This document shows, piece after piece, positions 15,167 to 27,101 of a DNA stretch of 64,000 nt. Positions within the stretch are counted from its first letter, which is position 1, and every line of letters starts with the position of its first letter. The notes beneath the pieces are model-generated. The model was not told the DNA's origin and made no database searches. It saw only the letters and a program-made list of their open reading frames with translations. Origin of the DNA: an uncultured Gemmatimonadaceae bacterium (lineage in GTDB: Bacteria; Gemmatimonadota; Gemmatimonadetes; Gemmatimonadales; Gemmatimonadaceae); NCBI GenBank assembly GCA_963751275.1, contig CAVVTZ010000006.1, positions 1 to 64,000 on the forward strand, written 5' to 3'. A program made the position numbers and the translations under genes.

Positions 15167-15174
15167 GGGTCTAA

Positions 15175-15289
15175 ACTACGCGGGAAGCGGGAAGCGGGAA
15201 GCGCCGCGGGATGCGAGAACAGCGCGTGGGACTCCCCAGGCTCTTCTCGCACATCGCGGCGCTTCCCGCTTCCCGCTTCCCGCGTAGTT
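15175..15289. repeat. Palindromic repeat family A variant with GGGAAGC heptamers
   Basis: AACTACGCGGGAAGCGGGAAGCGGGAAGCGCCGCG ... CGCGGCGCTTCCCGCTTCCCGCTTCCCGCGTAGTT, right after the cox operon; possible terminator role. Confidence 0.85.
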
Positions 15290-15425
15290 AGTTCGCCGTT
15301 CTATCCCGCCGCCGCCAGGCGAGCCAGGTGATCACGCTCACCACAAGGAACGCCGGCACCGCGAGGATCCACATCCCGCTCATCATGCCGTCCAGGAACT
15401 CGGCCATCGGGCCGCCCATGATCAT
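15288..15425 (-). CDS. Small single-TM protein (45 aa) at the end of the cox operon
   Basis: ATGA overlap with the subunit IV stop; MIMGGPMAEFLDGMMSGMWILAVPAFLVVSVITWLAWRRRDRTAN. Confidence 0.55.
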   Translation of the reverse strand: MIMGGPMAEFLDGMMSGMWILAVPAFLVVSVITWLAWRRRDRTAN

Positions 15426-15745
15426 GGCGCGGGCGTGGCGGCGCGCAGGTGCAGGAGGCGGAAGGCGTCGGGCCAGATCTGGTTCATCATCAGCAGCGCG
15501 AAGATCAGATAGGGGATGAGCGCCAGGAAGAGCGCGCGGCGCTCCCACTTCATGTGCATGAAGTACATGAGCCCCAGCCCCGCCTCGATGAGCGCCAGCA
15601 CCAGCAGCGCCAGGAAGAGCGTGAGGGTGGGCAGGCCGCGGTAGGTGAGCACCACCTCCACCGCGACGATGAGCAGCAGCCCCAACCAGACGATCACGTA
15701 GAACTTCATCCCCGGCTCGGGGCGGGACTGCGTGTTGGCGGTCAT
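15422..15745 (-). CDS. ctaF: Cytochrome c oxidase subunit IV family
   Basis: Three TM helices, YFMHMKWE motif. Confidence 0.85.
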   Translation of the reverse strand: MTANTQSRPEPGMKFYVIVWLGLLLIVAVEVVLTYRGLPTLTLFLALLVLALIEAGLGLMYFMHMKWERRALFLALIPYLIFALLMMNQIWPDAFRLLHLRAATPAP

Positions 15746-15755
15746 GGCGCGGCCT

Positions 15756-16385
15756 CTACTTGGCGTTCATCAGGTAGACGAGCGGGAAGACGAACATCCA
15801 CACCAGATCGACGAAATGCCAATACAGGCTCGTGGTCTCGATGTGTCCCGGCTTGAGGCGGCCGCGCCGGAACATGAGCGCGACCACCGTGAGCGCGACG
15901 ACGCCCGAGATCACGTGCAGGAGATGCAGCCCCGTGATCCCGAAGAAGGTGGCGCCGAAGAGCACCGATCCGCCCTCGGGATTCTTCGATGGGCTCCACC
16001 CTTCGCCGAACATGCTGAACCACTCGCGGATATGGAGCGTCGCGAAGACCACGCCGAGCAGCACCGTGGCGCCCATCCATTTCACCGTGGCCGGGCGGTC
16101 CTCCCGCTTCGCCGCCGCCACCGCCGCGATCATCGTGAGGCTGCTCGTGAGCAGCACGAAGGTCATCACGAGGCCGTTCACGATCGAGGGGAAGAAGGCG
16201 AAGGGACGCGTCCAGTCGGGGCTGCCCACGCGCAGATAGCCGTACGCGAAGAGGAGCGCGCCGAAGGTGGCCGCATCCGCGATGATGAACAGCCACATCA
16301 CGAACTTCTTGGACTCGATCGCGAACGGAGATGGTTCCATCGCCGCCCCATGTCCCCCGCTCGTCGTCACAGCAGAATCGGCCAC
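15756..16385 (-). CDS. ctaE: Cytochrome c oxidase subunit III
   Basis: MWLFIIAD, FFGITGLHLLHV, LYWHFVDLVWMFVFPLVY. Confidence 0.92.
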   Translation of the reverse strand: MADSAVTTSGGHGAAMEPSPFAIESKKFVMWLFIIADAATFGALLFAYGYLRVGSPDWTRPFAFFPSIVNGLVMTFVLLTSSLTMIAAVAAAKREDRPATVKWMGATVLLGVVFATLHIREWFSMFGEGWSPSKNPEGGSVLFGATFFGITGLHLLHVISGVVALTVVALMFRRGRLKPGHIETTSLYWHFVDLVWMFVFPLVYLMNAK

Positions 16386-16404
16386 GTCGCCTCCCGACGG
16401 CTGA

Positions 16405-16968
16405 TCACACCCGCATCCAGAGGATCAAGAGCAGATAGAGCCAGAGCGCCAGCATGAAGTGCCAATAGAGCGCCGCGGCGGCGAGCGCATTGAGCGGATC
16501 CGCCCCGCCGGCGCGCGACACGCGCACCGACACGTACGAGAGCGCGATGAGCCCGCCGATCACGTGCAGCGCGTGCAGCACGGTGAACAGGTAGAAGAAC
16601 GCGCTGCTGGGCGCCGTGGCGAGATACAGACCCTGCGCCACGAGCGCGCGCCACGCCACGAACTGGCCGGCGAGGAAGAGCAGCCCCAGTCCGAGCGTCG
16701 CGTACAGCAGGCTGCGTCCCGCCGGCGACCCGAGATCGCCCGCGAGCCGCCGCCGGCTCAGTTCCAGCGTGCCGCTGCTCACCAGGAGCACGAGCGTGTT
16801 GACGAGCAGGATCGATGGCAGCTGGAAGCGCACCCAGTCGGTGGCGCCGCCCTGGCGGATGACCAGCGCGCTCGTGAGCGCGGCGAAGAACATCGCGATC
16901 GCGAGGATCCCGACCAGCACGCCGGTGCGCGCCGGCGATTCGTAGCGGGCCGCGGTGGGTGCCGTCAC
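16405..16968 (-). CDS. Cytochrome c oxidase subunit III-like (second, more divergent copy)
   Basis: NTLVLLVSS, FFYLFTVLHALHV, YWHFMLALWLYL. Confidence 0.88.
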   Translation of the reverse strand: MTAPTAARYESPARTGVLVGILAIAMFFAALTSALVIRQGGATDWVRFQLPSILLVNTLVLLVSSGTLELSRRRLAGDLGSPAGRSLLYATLGLGLLFLAGQFVAWRALVAQGLYLATAPSSAFFYLFTVLHALHVIGGLIALSYVSVRVSRAGGADPLNALAAAALYWHFMLALWLYLLLILWMRV

Positions 16969-18736
<1,768 letters not shown>

Positions 18737-18751
18737 GCGATCCTCGGCGGC

Positions 18752-19552
18752 TCATTGATTGGCCTGCGACTTCAGCCATTCCTCGTATTTGTCCTGGGTC
18801 ATCACTTCGATGTACGCGCGCATGTTGTAGTGCCCGAGCCCGCAGAGCTGCGTGCACACGATCTCGTGCTTGCCGATCTGCGTCGCGGTGAAATGCAGCG
18901 GGATGACGATGCCGGGCACGAAGTCCTGCTGGATGCGCAGTTCGGGCACGAAGAAGGAGTGCCCCACATCCTTGGAGTGCATGCTGAGCGAGATCTCCCG
19001 GTTCACCGGCACCACGAGCGATGCGGAGACGATGTCGTCGCGCGCCGCGGTGTCATTGGCCGGATCGAGGCCGAAGTAGTTGTTGTCGGCCTCGGAGATC
19101 TTGTCGGGGTGGAGGACGCCGAATTTCCCGTCGGGCCCCGGATAGCGGAAATAGAACGCGAACTGCCCGGCCTGCGCGTCGATCTGCAGCGCGCCGGCGC
19201 CGGCCGGCGCGATGTAGATGGACGCCCATACCTTGGAGCCGACGAGCGTGAGCACCAGCACCTCGATGCCCACGAGCACGACGGCGAAGATCACCATCGG
19301 CCGCGCGCCGCCGGGGAAGATCTTGACCTTCCGTCCATCGCCCCGGTCGGCGAATCGCCAGACGAAGGTCGCCAGCGCGAACTGCGACACCACGAACAGC
19401 ACGCCCGACGCGATCATCGTCTCCATCAACTGGTGGTCGATCCCGGCGCCGAGCACCGAAATGTCGGGCGGGAGCCACCAAATGCGGCTCACGAAGATCG
19501 CGGCCGACACGATCGTGATGATCGTGAGGGCGATCGAGAAGAACTTTCCCAC
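18752..19552 (-). CDS. ctaC: Cytochrome c oxidase subunit II (CuA, no fused cytochrome c)
   Basis: SKDVGHSFFVP..DFVPG..CTQLCGLGHYNM CuA motif. Confidence 0.93.
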   Translation of the reverse strand: MGKFFSIALTIITIVSAAIFVSRIWWLPPDISVLGAGIDHQLMETMIASGVLFVVSQFALATFVWRFADRGDGRKVKIFPGGARPMVIFAVVLVGIEVLVLTLVGSKVWASIYIAPAGAGALQIDAQAGQFAFYFRYPGPDGKFGVLHPDKISEADNNYFGLDPANDTAARDDIVSASLVVPVNREISLSMHSKDVGHSFFVPELRIQQDFVPGIVIPLHFTATQIGKHEIVCTQLCGLGHYNMRAYIEVMTQDKYEEWLKSQANQ

Positions 19553-19569
19553 GGCGGTCGCCTCCCCGG

Positions 19570-20334
19570 CTAGTACGGCGTGGCGGTGAAGACGAGATTG
19601 ACCTTCTGCGTTTCGTTACCCGTAATGGTGACGTCTGCAGTCTTGGTGCCGAACTTCTCCTGCCACGCGGTGACGGTGTACTTGCCCGGCGGGAGTCCCG
19701 CGAGGCTGAAGGCGCCGTCGGGTCCCGTGACCGCCGAGTGCGAGGTGTTCAGCACCGCGAAGTAGCCGTGCATCCACGGATGGATGTTGCACTTCACGGG
19801 AATGAACTCCGCCTTCTCGTAGGTGACGTCGATCGGCGGCGAGCCCGGCGGCTGCGACTTGTTCCACTCCGGATTCAGCTTGGGCATCGGGTGGATGTTG
19901 TGGGACGTCTGGTCATCGTTCGCGATCTCGAGCTTCTGCCCCGCCTCCATGACCGCGACATGCGGCAGGTACTGACAGCCCTTCTGCGTGTACTTCGCCG
20001 GCGTGGCGGGCGGCGCGGTGTGCGTGTCGCCGGCGGAGATGTAGACCACCACATCGCCCAGCGTATTGCCGGGCCCGGTGACGACGAACTCGGTCATCGC
20101 GGGTGGATTATGCTCCTTGGCGCAGCTCGGCTCCTTCGCCATGTCGATGGGCTTCATCTTCGGCGGGGTACCGGTGTACGTGATGATGCCGCTAATGGTG
20201 CCGCCGGCGGCGGGTGCGGGCGCCGCGCCGCCGAGGAGCAAGACCAGCGCGGTCGCCGCGCCGGCGAGCGCGACGGCCGTGGCCGCCGCGCCCGCCGGGA
20301 ACGCCGGCTTCAGTCGTGAGGGTCGATCCATCAT
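19570..20334 (-). CDS. Periplasmic cupredoxin-like protein with a carboxypeptidase-regulatory-like Ig domain
   Basis: Signal peptide; HNIH...CNIHPWM (type-1 Cu-like His/Cys/His/Met set); GAFSLAGLPPGKYTVTAW; ATGA overlap with the upstream gene. Confidence 0.75.
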   Translation of the reverse strand: MMDRPSRLKPAFPAGAAATAVALAGAATALVLLLGGAAPAPAAGGTISGIITYTGTPPKMKPIDMAKEPSCAKEHNPPAMTEFVVTGPGNTLGDVVVYISAGDTHTAPPATPAKYTQKGCQYLPHVAVMEAGQKLEIANDDQTSHNIHPMPKLNPEWNKSQPPGSPPIDVTYEKAEFIPVKCNIHPWMHGYFAVLNTSHSAVTGPDGAFSLAGLPPGKYTVTAWQEKFGTKTADVTITGNETQKVNLVFTATPY

Positions 20335-21179
20335 TGTGTGCCTCCATCCGGCCCAATGGGCTTGAGTGTGTTGGGATGTTCGCTGACGTACTGCTTGTAC
20401 AGCGCCGACTCCTGCGTGACCAGCAGGGGCTGCAGGGTGCGCAGGAAGTGCACGAGGTCCCACGCCTCATCCGGCTTGAGATTGTCGGCGAAGGACGGCA
20501 TCGGCGTGCCATCGAGTCCGGTCATGAAGTCGCGGTAGATGTCCGCGTTCGTCGTGCCGCACTTGAAGCGCTCGCCGGTGGAGAAATTGTACGGACGGAT
20601 CGGGTTGTCCTTGCTGTCGGTGAGGGTGGACGCCGACGGGCCGTCGCCGTGGCCCGTGGGGCCATGGCATTTCCAGCATTCGAGCTTCTGGTACAGCGCG
20701 CGCCCTCGGAGCACGCTCTCCGTCGTGATCGGCGTCTCCGGCGGGATCTCAATGGGCTTCGCCGGCTGCGCGCTCGCCCACTTGTTGGAGAACGTCTTGA
20801 TGTACGCCACCAGGTTCACGCGCGTCTGCTCCGTGAGCGGGAGCCAGGACGGCATGTTGGTGAAGACGAAGCCGCGCGTGACGGAGTTGTACAGATCCTG
20901 GTCCGTCGGCAGCGAGCCCGACAGTGTGGAGCGGCACTTGAACACGGCCTCCGTGAAGTCGCGGGGCTTGGGGTCGATGTACGGCGCGTTCTCACCGTTG
21001 CCATCGCCATCCACGCCGTGACATCCGATGCAGAAACGCTGATACGACTTGTGTCCATCTTCCACGCTGCCGGTGCGCCCGTCGACGACGACCGGCTGCT
21101 GCGCGCGCAGCGAGGCGGCGCCCCAGAGGAGCATGCTCGTTCCGGCGGCGACCGCGATCCTGCTCGTGTAGGATTTCAT
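20331..21179 (-). CDS. Periplasmic diheme c-type cytochrome
   Basis: Signal peptide; CIGCH and CWKCH, each followed by PRDF/PYNF and MPSW/MPSF (His/Met ligation); AGGAGG RBS. Confidence 0.92.
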   Translation of the reverse strand: MKSYTSRIAVAAGTSMLLWGAASLRAQQPVVVDGRTGSVEDGHKSYQRFCIGCHGVDGDGNGENAPYIDPKPRDFTEAVFKCRSTLSGSLPTDQDLYNSVTRGFVFTNMPSWLPLTEQTRVNLVAYIKTFSNKWASAQPAKPIEIPPETPITTESVLRGRALYQKLECWKCHGPTGHGDGPSASTLTDSKDNPIRPYNFSTGERFKCGTTNADIYRDFMTGLDGTPMPSFADNLKPDEAWDLVHFLRTLQPLLVTQESALYKQYVSEHPNTLKPIGPDGGTQ

Positions 21180-21189
21180 CGGTGGCCTC

Positions 21190-22723
21190 CTAGAAAGCGA
21201 AGTCGAGCGCGAGCAGCACGCTGCTGCTATTCACAATGGCGGTCGGGTTGAGCGGCGGCGCACCCACGCCATCGCCACTCAACGGGACGCCGCCCACGGT
21301 CCTGCTCAGCGAATACTCAACATGGAAGGCCAGTCCGTCCCGGCTGAACATGAAGGGATACGACCGGAGTCCGATGACGTACTGATCCGTGTTGCCGTAG
21401 TTGCTCGCATTGTCCGGATCGGACTGCTGCGTCATGTGCACCTGTTCATAGCGGCCGATGATGATGAACTGCGAGTTCGGGATATAGTGCACTTCGAGCA
21501 GCGCACCGTTCCATTCGGCGTTCTTCGCGCCGGACGGCACCGCATCGGTGCCCGCCAGCCCGAGTCCGAGATACACGTTGTCGGACGCGTGCATGAATTG
21601 CGGAAGGAATTCGAAGTTCCCGAACCAGAGCTGCGCCGTGGCGCCGATCCGGTAGAAGCTCTTGTTCATCGAGCCGGTGCCGCCGATCACTTCGCCACCG
21701 GACGTCTGGCTGAGCGTCGGATACTGGCCGAGGACGCCGAAGAGGCCGACGCGCTGCGGTCCGAGCGATTTCGACTGCCAGCCCTTGCTCAGCGTGAAGA
21801 CGCCGTCGAGCCCTTGCCCGGTGCCGGGGGGAAGGCCGGGCGTGCCGTCGGCGTCGCTGACGAACGCGACGGTGTAGCGCATCCAGCTGCTCGCGTCGTG
21901 CCCCATCAACTCGATGCCGAGCTGGTTGTCGCCCATGCCGAAGGGATTGGAGTCCCCAATGGGCACGAAGTGGTACTGCGAGTAGAAGGAGCCGTTGTTC
22001 GAGAGTGTCTCGATGCGCTTCTCCGACAGGAGATTGTCGAGCTCGAACTTGCCCATCTTGATGTTGACCCAGCTGCTGCCGACGTTGTCGAAACGCACGA
22101 ACGCCGTCTCGATGCCCATCGTGCCGTCGGGATCGAGCGTCGGCACGAGGCCGAAGGTGATGTTCTTGTAGAGGGTGCCGAGCATCAGGAAGTCGATGCC
22201 CGAGAGATCGAAGCCGGCCTGCGTGATCGTCTTGGAGACGCAGCAGGTGAGTCGGATCACCCGGCGTCGCGTCCACCGGCTGGTTGGTGGTGGTCTCGAT
22301 GTGGTACTGCGGCGTGGTGCGCAGCGAGATCGGCCAGTACGACGGATTCTGCCAGATCGGAGAATCCTTCTCGTTGCCGAGCTGGTAGCCGCGGTCCTTG
22401 AAGGCCTGGCCGAACGGATTGAGCTCGGGCCACGTGGTGTGGCAGGCGGAACAGGGGAGATCGTACTTCCGCGCGAAGGCCGGGATCCGCTTCTTCGCGA
22501 AGTTGGCGAAGGTCTCGCGGCCGGTGGTGGTGGCGGGTGCCGCGCTATTGAGCGAGGCGGTGTAGGCCTTATACGCCGCGTTCAGATCGGGCGACGGCGC
22601 CGGGGCGTCGGTCATCGCGGATGAACTTAGAAAGATCGCCGCGGGGAACAGCAGTGGCCCGAAGATCGCGACAGTCCATCGCCGCCCGCGTACACCCGGC
22701 CGTACGGGTAGCAGATTCGCCAT
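21190..22723 (-). CDS. cyc2: Cyc2-like monoheme cytochrome-porin fusion (frameshift at about 22250)
   Basis: PAFARKYDLPCSACHTTWPELNPFGQAFKDRGY matches the Cyc2 PxFAR[QK][TY]-CxxCH-PxL pattern. The downstream part has alternating beta-strand character and ends LDFAF (terminal Phe). GAGGAGG RBS; about 510 aa when joined. Confidence 0.8.
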
Positions 22724-22811
22724 ATGTCCTCCTCTAGGAGATCACCGCGTATCGTGCGCATCGCCGCGAGACGCGATCGTTCAACGGTCTCGCAACAATT
22801 CGGTCGCGCTA

Positions 22812-22840
22812 TTTGTAGGGAGAATTGCCGATGCTGTCAA
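22812..22840 (-). promoter_or_regulatory. Candidate sigma70 promoter for the cyc2-cox operon
   Basis: Minus strand TTGACA-N17-TACAAA, about 90 nt upstream of the cyc2 ATG. Confidence 0.5.
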
Positions 22841-22948
22841 TGAGGAATCCGAACATTTCACCGCTGCAATGTTCGCGCGGAGATTGGAAATCGCTTATCG
22901 AGCGCCCGGAGTGGCGGTCGGCGTGCCATGAGCGGGATCGCGACGATC

Positions 22949-24249: not shown

Positions 24250-24289
24250 GGAAGGCCTTAGGTGGGAGAGTACAAGGACGAGAGAGATG

Positions 24290-24476
24290 CAGTAGACAGT
24301 AAACAGTGATCCAGAACGGCACGGCAGTCTACAGTCGACAGTCTACAGCCCACAGAAAACAGATCACGAACGGCGTGAGGATCATCGAGGCACTCGTCCA
24401 ACAGTTTTCTGTGGACTGTAGACTGTCGACTGTAGACTGCCGTGCCGTTCTGGATCACTGGTCACTGTTGACTGCA
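24290..24476. repeat. Palindromic repeat family B (CAGTCGA/CAGTCTA heptamers)
   Basis: 57-bp arms 24304-24360 and 24404-24460 with one mismatch. Confidence 0.9.
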
Positions 24477-24514
24477 GCGTTACCGCCACTGGTGATGATG
24501 TTCGCAGTTCGCCT

Positions 24515-27101
24515 TCAAGGTTTCACCACCCGACTCATCCACGAATCCCCATGATACTCCCTCTGCAGCAATGTCGCCCGCTTGAGATCCTGCGACACCG
24601 TGACATCCGCCGCGCGCACGGGAATATTGCCCACCAACTTCATATCGCCCGGCCCGCTCGCTTTGTACAGCGCGATCGTCTCCGCCGTGGGCCAGACATG
24701 CAGGAGGAAGCCGCCGCCCTCGAGCGCCGACACGTCCACGCCCTCCGAGAACGCACCGCCCCAGCGCACCGGCGTGCCTCCGTCCACGGACACGACGGCG
24801 ACGCCGAGCGTATCGAAGGTGCCGTTGTTCCAGCCCGCGATGGCGATGTGTGAGCCGTCGGCGCTCGCGCGGAGGTCGCTCACCTGGCCGAACCATGACG
24901 GCGGCTTGATCTCCTTGGTCGCGCCGCCGCGCAGGATCATCAGGCGGTCGGACGTCGCGGGGATATAGGCCCAACCGTCGGGGAGCGCGATCACGGCACG
25001 GTAGATCGAATCGGGCAGGTCCACCGAGCGCAGCACGGCGCCGCTGCGGACGTCGGTGAGCGCCACGTGCGAACCGGTGGCGTTCTGCGTGCGCACGAGC
25101 AGCGTGACGGAGTCCGCCCAATTCCACGCGACCGGCGTTCCCTGCGTGCTCACGGGCTGCTCGGATCCGCCGTCGAATGGCATGACCGACAGCCGCCGCT
25201 CCAATGCGCCCGTGCTCGACGGCAGGACGCGCATCACGAGGATGCGCGCACCGTTCGGCGCGATGAGCGGGTACACGGTGTTCGAGGACTTCACGAAGCG
25301 CTTCGGCTCGGCGAGGCGGCCCTTGAGCAGGTCCGCGACGTCCAGCGCCCACGCGGAGCTCTCGGTGCTGCCTTCGTCGATCACCATCGATCCGCCGTCG
25401 GCGGTGACGGTGAAGTTATTGAAGCGCCCCGCGTACAGCGTATCCTGCCGCTCGGCGAGACGCCCGTTGGACGGATCGAGTCCCACGCGCACGATCGATT
25501 CGAACCCCTGCCCCGCGCGCGTGAGCCAGAGCGCGCCGTTGCTGAGCACGCCGGGACAGGTGCACGAATTGAGCACCTTGTCCGCCACCTTGCCGCTGCG
25601 GTCGATCACCTGCCAGAGCCCGTGCCCGCGCTGCACGATGAGCGCGCACGATCCAATTGCCGTCGGGGGAGACGCTGAGTCCCGTGATGCCGGTGCCGAG
25701 TCCCGCGACCTTGATGCTGTCGTGCACGATGCCGCTGAGCGACGTGATGCGCACGAAGTGGATGGAGTCGACGTTGGCGGATGGCGGGGTGATGAGCAGC
25801 GAGTCGCCGCCCGCCCAGAAGGTGGCGGTGCCGGGCGTGAGGAACACCGGCGGTCCGCCGAGCGCGGAGACCAGGTAGGCGCCGAAGCGACCGTTGATCG
25901 TGCCGGTGAAGATGAGCCCGCGGCGGTCGCGGCTCCACTCGAGCGCGCTCACGGCGGTGGCCTTGTCGAGGATCCGGTGCGTGCTCGTGCCACCGACATC
26001 CTGCACGTCCAGCGCGTACGTGCACGCGGCCGCGCTGCAGTTCTGCGTCATGATGGCGAGCTGCTTGCCATCGGACGAGATGGCGGAGCCCAGCGTGTTC
26101 CCCGAGAAGGTGAGCTGGGTGCGGTCGCGCAGGGCGAAGTTCGCGCCGTGGCGGCCGAACTTGCCGGTGGCGATGAGCGCGGCGATCGCGACGACCAGCG
26201 CGACCGCGGCGGCGCCGATCGCGATCGTGAGGTTCCGGCCGCGCGGGCTCGGCGCCGGCTCGACGACGGGCTTGAGCTCGAGGGCGCGCGCGAACTCGCC
26301 GGCACTGGGGAAGCGGTCGGCGGGAGTCTTGTCGAGCGCCTTCGCGACGGCGGCGTCCACCGTGACCGGAATCGATTCGCGCACGACGCGCAGATGCGTC
26401 GGGCGTTCCATCATGAGCTTCGCGATCATCGCCTGCGCGCTGGGGCCGGTGACGGGCGGCTCGCCGGCGAGCATCTCGTAGAGCACGGCGGCGAGCGAAT
26501 AGACGTCGCTGCGCGCGTCGAGCGTGCGGTCGCCGGTGGCCTGCTCGGGGGACATGTACTGCGGCGTGCCCAGGGAGAGGCCCGTTTCGGTGAGGCGGTT
26601 GCCGCCGGCTTCCTTCACCGCGAGCGCGATGCCGAAGTCGGCGAGCATCGCCTCCCCTTCCTGCAGCAGGATGTTCTCGGGCTTGATGTCGCGGTGGACG
26701 ACACCGTGGCGGTGCGCGTAGTCGAGCGCGCTGGCGATCTGCTTGGTGATCATGATCGCTTCGTCGAGGCCGAGCTGCTTGTCGCGCTTCAGTTTGTCGC
26801 GGAGGCTCTCCCCGCGCACGTACGGCAATACATAGTAGAAGAACGAATCCGCGACGCCCGAATCGATGAGCGTGAGGATATGCGGATGATCGAGCCGCGC
26901 GGTGATCTTGATCTCGGCGAGGAAGCGGTCGGAGCCGAGGACGGCGCCGAGTTCCGGGCGGAGGATCTTGAGCGCGACCTCGCGTTCGTGCTTGAGGTCG
27001 AAGGCGAGGTAGACCGTGGCCATGCCGCCGGAACCGAGCTCGCGTTCGAGGCGATAGCGATCGGCCAGGGCGGATTGGAGGCGCGGCGGGGCGTCGAGCA
27101 T
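24515..27101 (-). CDS. Ser/Thr protein kinase with a TM helix and C-terminal TolB-like beta-propeller (frameshift at about 25645)
   Basis: ELGSGGMATVYLA, VALK, HRDIKPEN, DFG, GTPQYMSPEQ; SPDG/SSDG propeller repeats. Confidence 0.92.

Follow-up and report, generated by a model that had tools for sequence, protein, structure and literature searches.

When analyzing the genome of an uncultured Gemmatimonadaceae bacterium (assembly GCA_963751275.1; 3.1 Mb in 14 contigs, 83% complete), we found, in the 64,000 nucleotides (nt) at the start of contig CAVVTZ010000006.1 (the window), nine co-oriented minus-strand genes across 22723-15288 that form a real, conserved, and probably functional operon. They encode a Cyc2-type cytochrome-porin, a diheme cytochrome c, a type-1 copper protein, and an aa3-type oxidase. 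Judged from the sequence, such an operon would quite likely let a heterotroph take up electrons from outside the cell and deliver them to O2, whatever the donor. Fe(II), free or organically bound, is our best guess for that donor because tested Cyc2 proteins oxidize Fe(II), and by this analogy we give it a probability of about 0.55. The sole well-studied operon of this layout also oxidizes Fe(II) (PMC10654088; here and below, cited papers other than the PMC8239418 supplements are taken in the passages available to us). The earlier note on this DNA held that the substrate cannot be read from sequence, and we agree.

In the proposed chain, the outer membrane Cyc2 heme would take an electron from Fe(II) and pass it to the periplasmic diheme cytochrome c. 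The type-1 copper protein would then carry the electron, or assist its transfer, to the oxidase CuA, and from there it would reach O2. Energy would be kept because the D-channel, the sole canonical channel left, would draw the protons for water from the cytoplasm; alternatively, part of these protons would take a new path near a Glu in transmembrane helix 2 (TM2) of CoxII. The chain would be a supplementary branch, with normal caa3 and cbb3 oxidases kept for ordinary respiration; the genome encodes both, the separate caa3 enzyme with canonical residues, and a CtaA gene too. As RuBisCO was not found in this 83% complete genome, the gain from the chain would be extra proton motive force for a heterotroph. 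Co-transcription, the direction and order of electron flow, the proton route, and the donor are all points that we infer rather than observe directly.

We assign the first gene to the Cyc2-type cytochrome-porins from its motif and from the barrel predicted for a homolog. The protein has a long N-terminal leader, the motif PAFARKY-x3-CSACH-x3-PEL, and a barrel with a terminal Phe. Keffer et al. (PMC8406198) described the Cyc2 motif as AxPxFAR[Q/K][T/Y] before CxxCH, with PxL after it; the window reads R-I-P-A-F-A-R-K-Y, with R instead of A at the first position. A search with the barrel half gave at least 3199 homologs among 8000 candidates scored, and 110 full-length proteins of the 120 listed were aligned. 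The motif is present in 109 of the 110 (64 with A at the first position), a single CxxCH in all, and the terminal Phe in 109. The N-terminal motif, single CxxCH, PxL, and porin barrel are common to the Cyc2 family, as in At. ferrooxidans Cyc2, Mariprofundus Cyc2PV-1, and Leptospirillum Cyt572, and the barrel of the family is most like 16-stranded porins (PMC8406198). Unlike these named proteins, the predicted Cyc2 proteins of the operon family carry 42-125 residues before the motif. The gene had no family or sequence match in Pfam, NCBIfam, or the PDB. An intact homolog, P0002, shares 339 of 472 aligned residues with the window Cyc2 and was modeled as a porin barrel with 16 strand elements (mean predicted local distance difference test [pLDDT] score of 79). 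The best matches of this barrel were PorB (Z score, 25.1), Omp32 (25.0), and OprP (24.6), with root mean square deviations of 3.0-3.2 over ~305 aligned residues; OprO/OprP have been named as templates for Cyc2 (Keffer et al., PMC8406198). The heme domain of P0002 was modeled at a pLDDT of <50. The motif and the porin barrel thus stand, and the heme-plugged state named in the earlier note is putative. On a Caballeronia plasmid (L147:4921-7938), genes for a high-potential iron-sulfur protein, a Cyc2-like protein, and a c-type cytochrome stand in a row; this Cyc2-like gene resembles the operon Cyc2 only in the heme region.

The diheme carrier belongs to a family other than Acidithiobacillus Cyc1, and the copper protein appears to belong to one other than Cup, as had been suspected. 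The diheme cytochrome has two CxxCH motifs, and its best solved relative is Kustc0457 (6H5L_B; E value of 5e-57 over 211 residues), whereas cytochrome c4 entries reached E values of only 0.02-0.06; it is not a Cyc1 of the c4 type. M78 and M196 are invariant in 68 homologs, which suggests that both hemes are His/Met ligated. In Kuenenia, Kustc0457 (PDB 6H5L chain B) partners a hydroxylamine oxidoreductase-type nitrite reductase (PMC8042395), while the operon diheme cytochrome follows a cytochrome-porin instead. The copper protein gave no significant PDB sequence match. Its site comprises H100 and C137-x2-H140-x2-M143 (model numbering), all four residues being invariant in 67 homologs, and its model (pLDDT, 93) matches the fold of amicyanin, plastocyanin, CuA, and AcoP. 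AcoP, of the same fold class, came 33rd in the ranking (E value of 0.003, 14% identity), behind amicyanin and others.

The gene order is conserved. A genome scan with the Cyc2 alignment returned at least 599 stretches, of which the best 80 were analyzed; these come mostly from metagenome-assembled genomes (MAGs) of Gemmatimonadales and Acidobacteriota, with one Bacillota and two Chloroflexi labels. Wherever the flank was long enough to tell (78 loci), the diheme gene directly follows cyc2, and cyc2-diheme-cupredoxin-coxII-coxI is unbroken in 63 of the 68 informative loci; the synteny survey that the earlier note called for thus found the order kept across two phyla. Two coxIII genes occur in 48 of the 60 loci long enough and one in the other 12. 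In an even sample of 400 Gemmatimonadota genomes, the operon Cyc2 was found in 33 (~8%), and a CoxII with >60% identity was found in the same 33, on the same contig in 31. The positive genomes fall into two families (3/95 and 30/166). Because related genomes are not independent and the two samples could share members, their counts are kept separate. One acidobacterial MAG (L101:9995-15895) has cyc2-diheme-cupredoxin followed by a cbb3 ccoN-like gene and a ccoO-like diheme fusion; here, too, an O2 reductase terminates the front module.

These counts bear on whether porin-cytochrome and oxidase act in series at all. They might only be co-regulated, with Cyc2 exporting electrons or sensing redox state and an internal source feeding the oxidase via the diheme and copper proteins. 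We consider this very improbable given the 33/33 co-occurrence, the translational coupling seen across two phyla, and the operon's content, which includes no quinol-oxidizing gene to supply electrons for export, although four loci have cyc2-diheme(-cupredoxin) without an oxidase, and a diheme-cupredoxin-oxidase block lacking Cyc2 can follow a bd-like/cytochrome c module (L158; L152).

The oxidase has an unusual set of residues (numbered as in P. denitrificans, following the PMC8239418 supplementary table). GHPEVY, WGHHM, and HFH are kept in 57/57 full-length CoxI proteins linked to Cyc2, and the window copy agrees, including the heme a His. With six His ligands, the cross-link Tyr, and the Glu of GHPEVY, it is an A1-type heme-copper oxygen reductase. 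An NO reductase was rejected, as the cross-link Tyr and the three CuB His are kept. The D-channel Asp and Asn (and Glu) are also present in all 57. The K-channel residues Lys354 and Thr351, on the other hand, are in none of the 57, nor in the window copy; Thr351 is replaced by Ala (56) or Ser, with 'SAII' and 'SVVA' seen once each. The CoxI His-Asp pair that we take to be the Mg site has lost its Asp to Ala or Gly in 57/57. In CoxII, the entry Glu78 is lost in 68/68, with no acidic residue near the entry position, the CuA Glu is replaced by Gln in 68/68, and a Glu lies mid-TM2 in 67/68.

An enzyme without this Lys might not be chiefly an energy-conserving oxidase and might instead reduce H2O2, or scavenge O2, with outside electrons, as a guard against Fenton chemistry. 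The Rhodobacter sphaeroides K362M mutant loses oxidase activity and keeps peroxidase activity (PMC7601700), the linked clade has lost Lys, Thr, and the subunit II entry Glu together, and two other oxidases are at hand for respiration. Even so, the rus-type oxidase of Acidithiobacillus, likewise Lys-less (PMC8239418), is accepted as the O2 reductase of its chain (PMC10654088), conservation extends to the D-channel and to both CoxIII copies, and the front module can join cbb3 genes (L101). We therefore hold such a peroxide role to be improbable and favor O2 reduction.

Phylogenetic analysis (quick trees and FastTree) places the window CoxI in the CoxN clade (SH-like approximate likelihood ratio test [SH-aLRT] support of 99), that is, with the CoxMNOP/a-III enzymes. 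All linked CoxI form one clade within it (SH-aLRT, 99-100). Among annotated CoxI, the closest (47-48% identity) are of the CoxN type and are encoded in II-I-III-III'-IV operons. The CoxMNOP, or subtype a-III, oxidases of Skermanella, Burkholderia, Ralstonia (coxN), and Hymenobacter share the clade and this layout, but the K-channel Lys is retained in those read, and the regions examined around them hold no Cyc2; subtype a-III is listed as K-channel 'yes' (PMC8239418 supplements). A stand-alone acidobacterial operon that adjoins the linked clade (L148) keeps Lys, the entry Glu, the CuA Glu, and the His-Asp pair, and cyc2 is absent from the 20 kb around it. In rus-type CoxA, two additional helices precede the common N-terminal part, and Thr351 is retained but Lys is not (PMC8239418 supplements). 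As stand-ins for this clade we used 2TM-type proteins chosen by that published signature; they include no Acidithiobacillus CoxA, and the named ones are actinobacterial. The first conserved CoxI motif lies at residue 21-26 in 57/57 linked proteins, compared with a median of 112 in 120 2TM-type proteins. A branch with a support of 99-100 separates the stand-ins from the linked clade, and forcing the two together was 132 log-likelihood units worse, with a P value of 0.0004 in the approximately unbiased test (p-AU; 26/53 rows, LG+G4). Because this grouping is rejected, Lys would have been lost independently if the stand-ins represent the rus clade, and on that proviso the loss looks convergent with that of the rus-type oxidase. 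The Mg-site Asp is missing in 117 of the 120 stand-ins (3 unparsed), and the Mg pair varies in Lys-bearing CoxN, too. The convergence is a phylogenetic one, and two cases tie it to iron. Lys loss as a marker of iron oxidation was rejected, since it occurs without Cyc2.

Some relatives of this oxidase are worth recording. Four loci (L153, L155, L156, and L157) show that Gemmatimonadota hold a second Lys-less CoxN-like lineage, which retains the Mg pair and has no Cyc2 nearby. Close CoxI relatives at L149:6826-9207 (also P0129 and P0138) have the first CuB His replaced (FAQAEVY) and other ligand motifs degraded, and may be non-catalytic or re-purposed heme-copper subunits. An operon without Cyc2 at L158:110-11284 holds a radical SAM gene, a bd-like subunit, several cytochromes c, a Kustc0457-like diheme fusion, a copper protein of the same cupredoxin family, and a Lys-bearing oxidase.

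The earlier note compared the operon with the rus operon (cyc2-cyc1-cup-coxBACD-rus) of Acidithiobacillus ferrooxidans, which is known from Acidithiobacillus, Acidiferrobacter, and Acidihalobacter (PMC10654088). The order of functions is indeed the same (cytochrome-porin, diheme, copper protein, and coxII-I-III-IV), and in the rus oxidase, too, the Lys of the K-channel is missing, as are the entry Glu of subunit II and the CuA Glu (PMC8239418; bioRxiv 10.1101/2020.03.01.968255). The operon is an analog and no copy, built from different parts: a Kustc0457-like diheme protein in place of the c4-type Cyc1, a copper protein with an extra domain, and a CoxN-type oxidase with two CoxIII. Its CoxI lacks the two extra N-terminal helices of the 2TM CoxA and falls in a separate clade; it loses Thr351 and mostly keeps Ser291, whereas the rus type keeps Thr and loses Ser. 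The rus operon includes a rusticyanin gene, whereas here only a 45-amino-acid (45-aa) peptide gene and a hairpin follow coxIV. A further difference is that RuBisCO was not found in the host. Descent of the whole operon from the rus operon was rejected, given the different carriers and the different CoxI clade.

Rus-operon variants without Cyc1 and with other cytochromes c have been reported in Gemmatimonadetes and other soil MAGs in a 2020 preprint, with COX3 duplicated in the Gemmatimonadetes variants as in subtype a-III (bioRxiv 10.1101/2020.03.01.968255). These variants are very probably the operon studied here. In the preprint they are interpreted as transfers from the ancestors of iron-oxidizing acidophiles; the position of CoxI inside the CoxN/a-III clade argues against such a whole-cluster transfer. 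The preprint, as far as it was covered, gives no analysis of the channels of these enzymes, whose residues we analyzed here, although its supplements may already list these MAGs and channel residues. Cyc2 is mentioned in marine Gemmatimonadota without context (PMC11316326). In the literature covered, which is partial, we found no functional test of the operon and no account of a Lys-less a-III clade. Our analysis adds that Cyc2 and CoxII co-occur exactly and that the chain can end in cbb3 genes instead, and it gives evidence for a CoxN-derived oxidase with its own K-channel loss.

Several observations weigh against a working Fe(II)-to-O2 chain. In canonical enzymes, mutating the K-channel abolishes oxidase activity (PMC7601700). 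Lys is lost in many other lineages without Cyc2 (CoxI read here; PMC8239418 table); in seven Cyc2-less genomes with a more distant CoxII, four of the six readable CoxI lack Lys and retain the Mg pair. The other two retain Lys, and the CuA Gln is found in such Lys-bearing, Cyc2-less oxidases as well (L152 and L158). Oxidase genes are absent after the diheme or cupredoxin gene in 4 of the 68 loci (L047 and L056-L058), and no rusticyanin gene was found in the operon after coxIV. The function of Cyc2 in Cluster 3 has been called the most uncertain (Keffer et al., PMC8406198), which would matter if the window Cyc2 belongs there; the connection of Leptospirillum Cyc572 to Acidobacteria and Nitrospira homologs (PMC10654088) is a lead in that direction. 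In favor of Fe(II), each of the three Cyc2 clusters includes a verified or tested Fe(II) oxidase (PMC8406198). To these points come the high frameshift density in coxI and the absence of cyc2 from the same-genus genomes searched, both taken up below.

The same wire could also serve another donor, such as quinones of reduced humics, Mn(II), the surface of a mineral, or a partner cell, with Fe(II) as a minor substrate. We regard this as possible but clearly less likely than Fe(II). The hosts are labeled as soil and peat MAGs, the barrel is without sequence match to solved proteins, RuBisCO was not found, and further multiheme-barrel loci in the genome suggest broad extracellular electron transfer. 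Against this, tested Cyc2 proteins all oxidize Fe(II), as far as the literature was covered, and a single heme in the porin would suit a small soluble one-electron donor.

The operon copy in the window carries frameshifts. Frameshift-aware alignment with intact relatives covered cyc2, the diheme and cupredoxin genes, coxII, coxI, and the second coxIII. It showed one frameshift in cyc2 (near 22252-22262) and seven in coxI, all single extra bases without an in-frame stop, and none in the diheme, cupredoxin, coxII, and second coxIII genes. The background was 17 breaks in 20.8 kb over 17 unrelated genes, with 11 of the 17 genes broken and extra bases in 12 of the 17 events. The eight frameshifts are probably assembly errors, and the family-level conclusions were built on intact relatives. 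Decay of the operon in this genome, with coxI as a pseudogene, would be compatible with the other readings, which concern the family. Such decay would explain why the density in coxI (7 in 1.77 kb) is ~5 times the background and why cyc2 was matched in 0/5 same-genus genomes (63-89% complete). It is nevertheless unlikely, since all eight breaks are single added bases that leave no in-frame stop, 457 of 568 aligned residues equal those of the intact relative, as for intact pairs, unrelated genes are broken likewise, and pyrimidine-synthesis-like genes and the caa3 coxI are split as well.

The operon bears on the question of which organisms oxidize Fe(II), or other donors outside the cell, in ordinary soils. 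A complete, tightly linked candidate chain is carried by ~8% of the sampled Gemmatimonadota genomes (33/400) and by many Acidobacteriota. For an uncertain Cyc2 group, linkage to a terminal oxidase points to a direction of electron flow and to a function that can be tested. Tentatively, abundant soil and peat heterotrophs (Gemmatimonadales and Acidobacteriota) may have independently assembled a rus-like iron-to-O2 chain from Cyc2, an anammox-type diheme cytochrome, a cupredoxin, and a CoxN oxidase, which then lost the K-channel, entry Glu, CuA Glu, and Mg-site Asp like the acidophile enzyme. If true, respiration of high-potential donors from outside the cell would have led more than once to an oxidase with the D-channel only, and soils would have in these taxa an Fe(II) sink that has been overlooked. 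As an A1 enzyme, the oxidase naturally lacks the Lys that canonical enzymes need for O2 turnover, and with a close Lys-bearing sister (62% identical) as the control, the pair makes it testable why A-type oxidases need two proton channels. The 2020 preprint on Gemmatimonadetes clusters lowers the novelty of the operon itself.

Table 1. Features of the operon and its borders in the window
Feature	Position	Strand	Basis
Sigma-70-like promoter candidate, TTGACA-N17-TACAAA	22812..22840	-	Sequence
Cyc2-type monoheme cytochrome-porin (predicted)	21190..22723	-	Motif; barrel model of homolog
Periplasmic diheme cytochrome c, Kustc0457 family	20331..21179	-	PF00034, PF13442; 6H5L_B
Type-1 copper protein, cupredoxin + CarboxypepD_reg/transthyretin-like domain	19570..20334	-	PF13620; invariant ligands; model
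CoxII with CuA ligands	18752..19552	-	COX2
CoxI, A1 motif GHPEVY, CoxN/a-III clade, seven frameshifts	16965..18736	-	COX1; trees
CoxIII, first copy	16405..16968	-	PF00510
CoxIII, second copy	15756..16385	-	PF00510
CoxIV	15422..15745	-	PF03626
45-aa single-helix membrane peptide	15288..15425	-	tblastn homologs at same place
50-bp heptamer-repeat hairpin between operon end and convergent gene	15174..15289	.	Repeat search

The nine genes nearly abut, as the earlier note had it: the intergenic distances in gene order are 10, -4, 17, 15, -4, 19, 10, and -4 nt, with three 4-nt overlaps and no gap of >19 nt (Table 1; the first ATG of the cupredoxin gene is at 20334). Pfam/NCBIfam identified the diheme cytochrome c, CarboxypepD_reg, COX2, COX1, two COX3, and COX4. 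The 45-aa peptide had no family match in Pfam or NCBIfam; tblastn found homologs at the equivalent position in 14 of the 80 loci, and it is possibly an extra oxidase subunit. The candidate promoter noted earlier is present, and TTGACA-N17-TA occurs in 19 of 77 homologous 250-nt upstream regions against ~0.6 expected (kin not independent), but the promoter scanner counted none, TACAAA lacking the T at the last -10 position. Simple patterns for FNR and Fur matched 0/77 upstream regions. An inverted repeat with the shape of a regulator site lies just 5' of the -35 element (22850-22875), in the window only and in 0/76 other upstream regions.

The long downstream hairpin is likewise real (arms 15174-15223 and 15240-15289, 50 nt each, 92% complementary, z score of -14), but it is a heptamer-repeat palindrome placed between convergent genes, with three such pairs genome-wide, and not a U-tract terminator; a terminator scan at the operon end found none. 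An operon-specific RNA was rejected for this genomic repeat. Intergenic heptamer repeats of another type at 24258-24554 (RLSTVDCR in spurious frames) resemble it. The GC content of the operon, 0.651, is at the 7th percentile of the genome, which may weakly support transfer. The heterotrophic-looking Gemmatimonadota background described earlier agrees with the named nearest relatives of a housekeeping gene, Gemmatimonadaceae or Gemmatimonadales at 81-88%, and with the RuBisCO result. Elsewhere in the genome, a second Cyc2-like gene (G000:C7:467750-471470; frameshifted, PAWARKY-x3-CxxCH) stands behind genes for a Rieske protein, cytochrome b, and a subunit IV-cytochrome c fusion, with a monoheme cytochrome after it; this bc-type complex joined to a cytochrome-porin is a candidate for an uphill or export branch. 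Two multiheme cytochromes (23 and 18 CxxCH) precede a probable outer membrane barrel at G000:C7:419400-424600. Finally, one run at G000:C9:595000-609450 combines cytochrome c maturation genes, multiheme cytochromes (frames with 8, 17, and 16 CxxCH), a probable barrel, and a NiFe hydrogenase operon.

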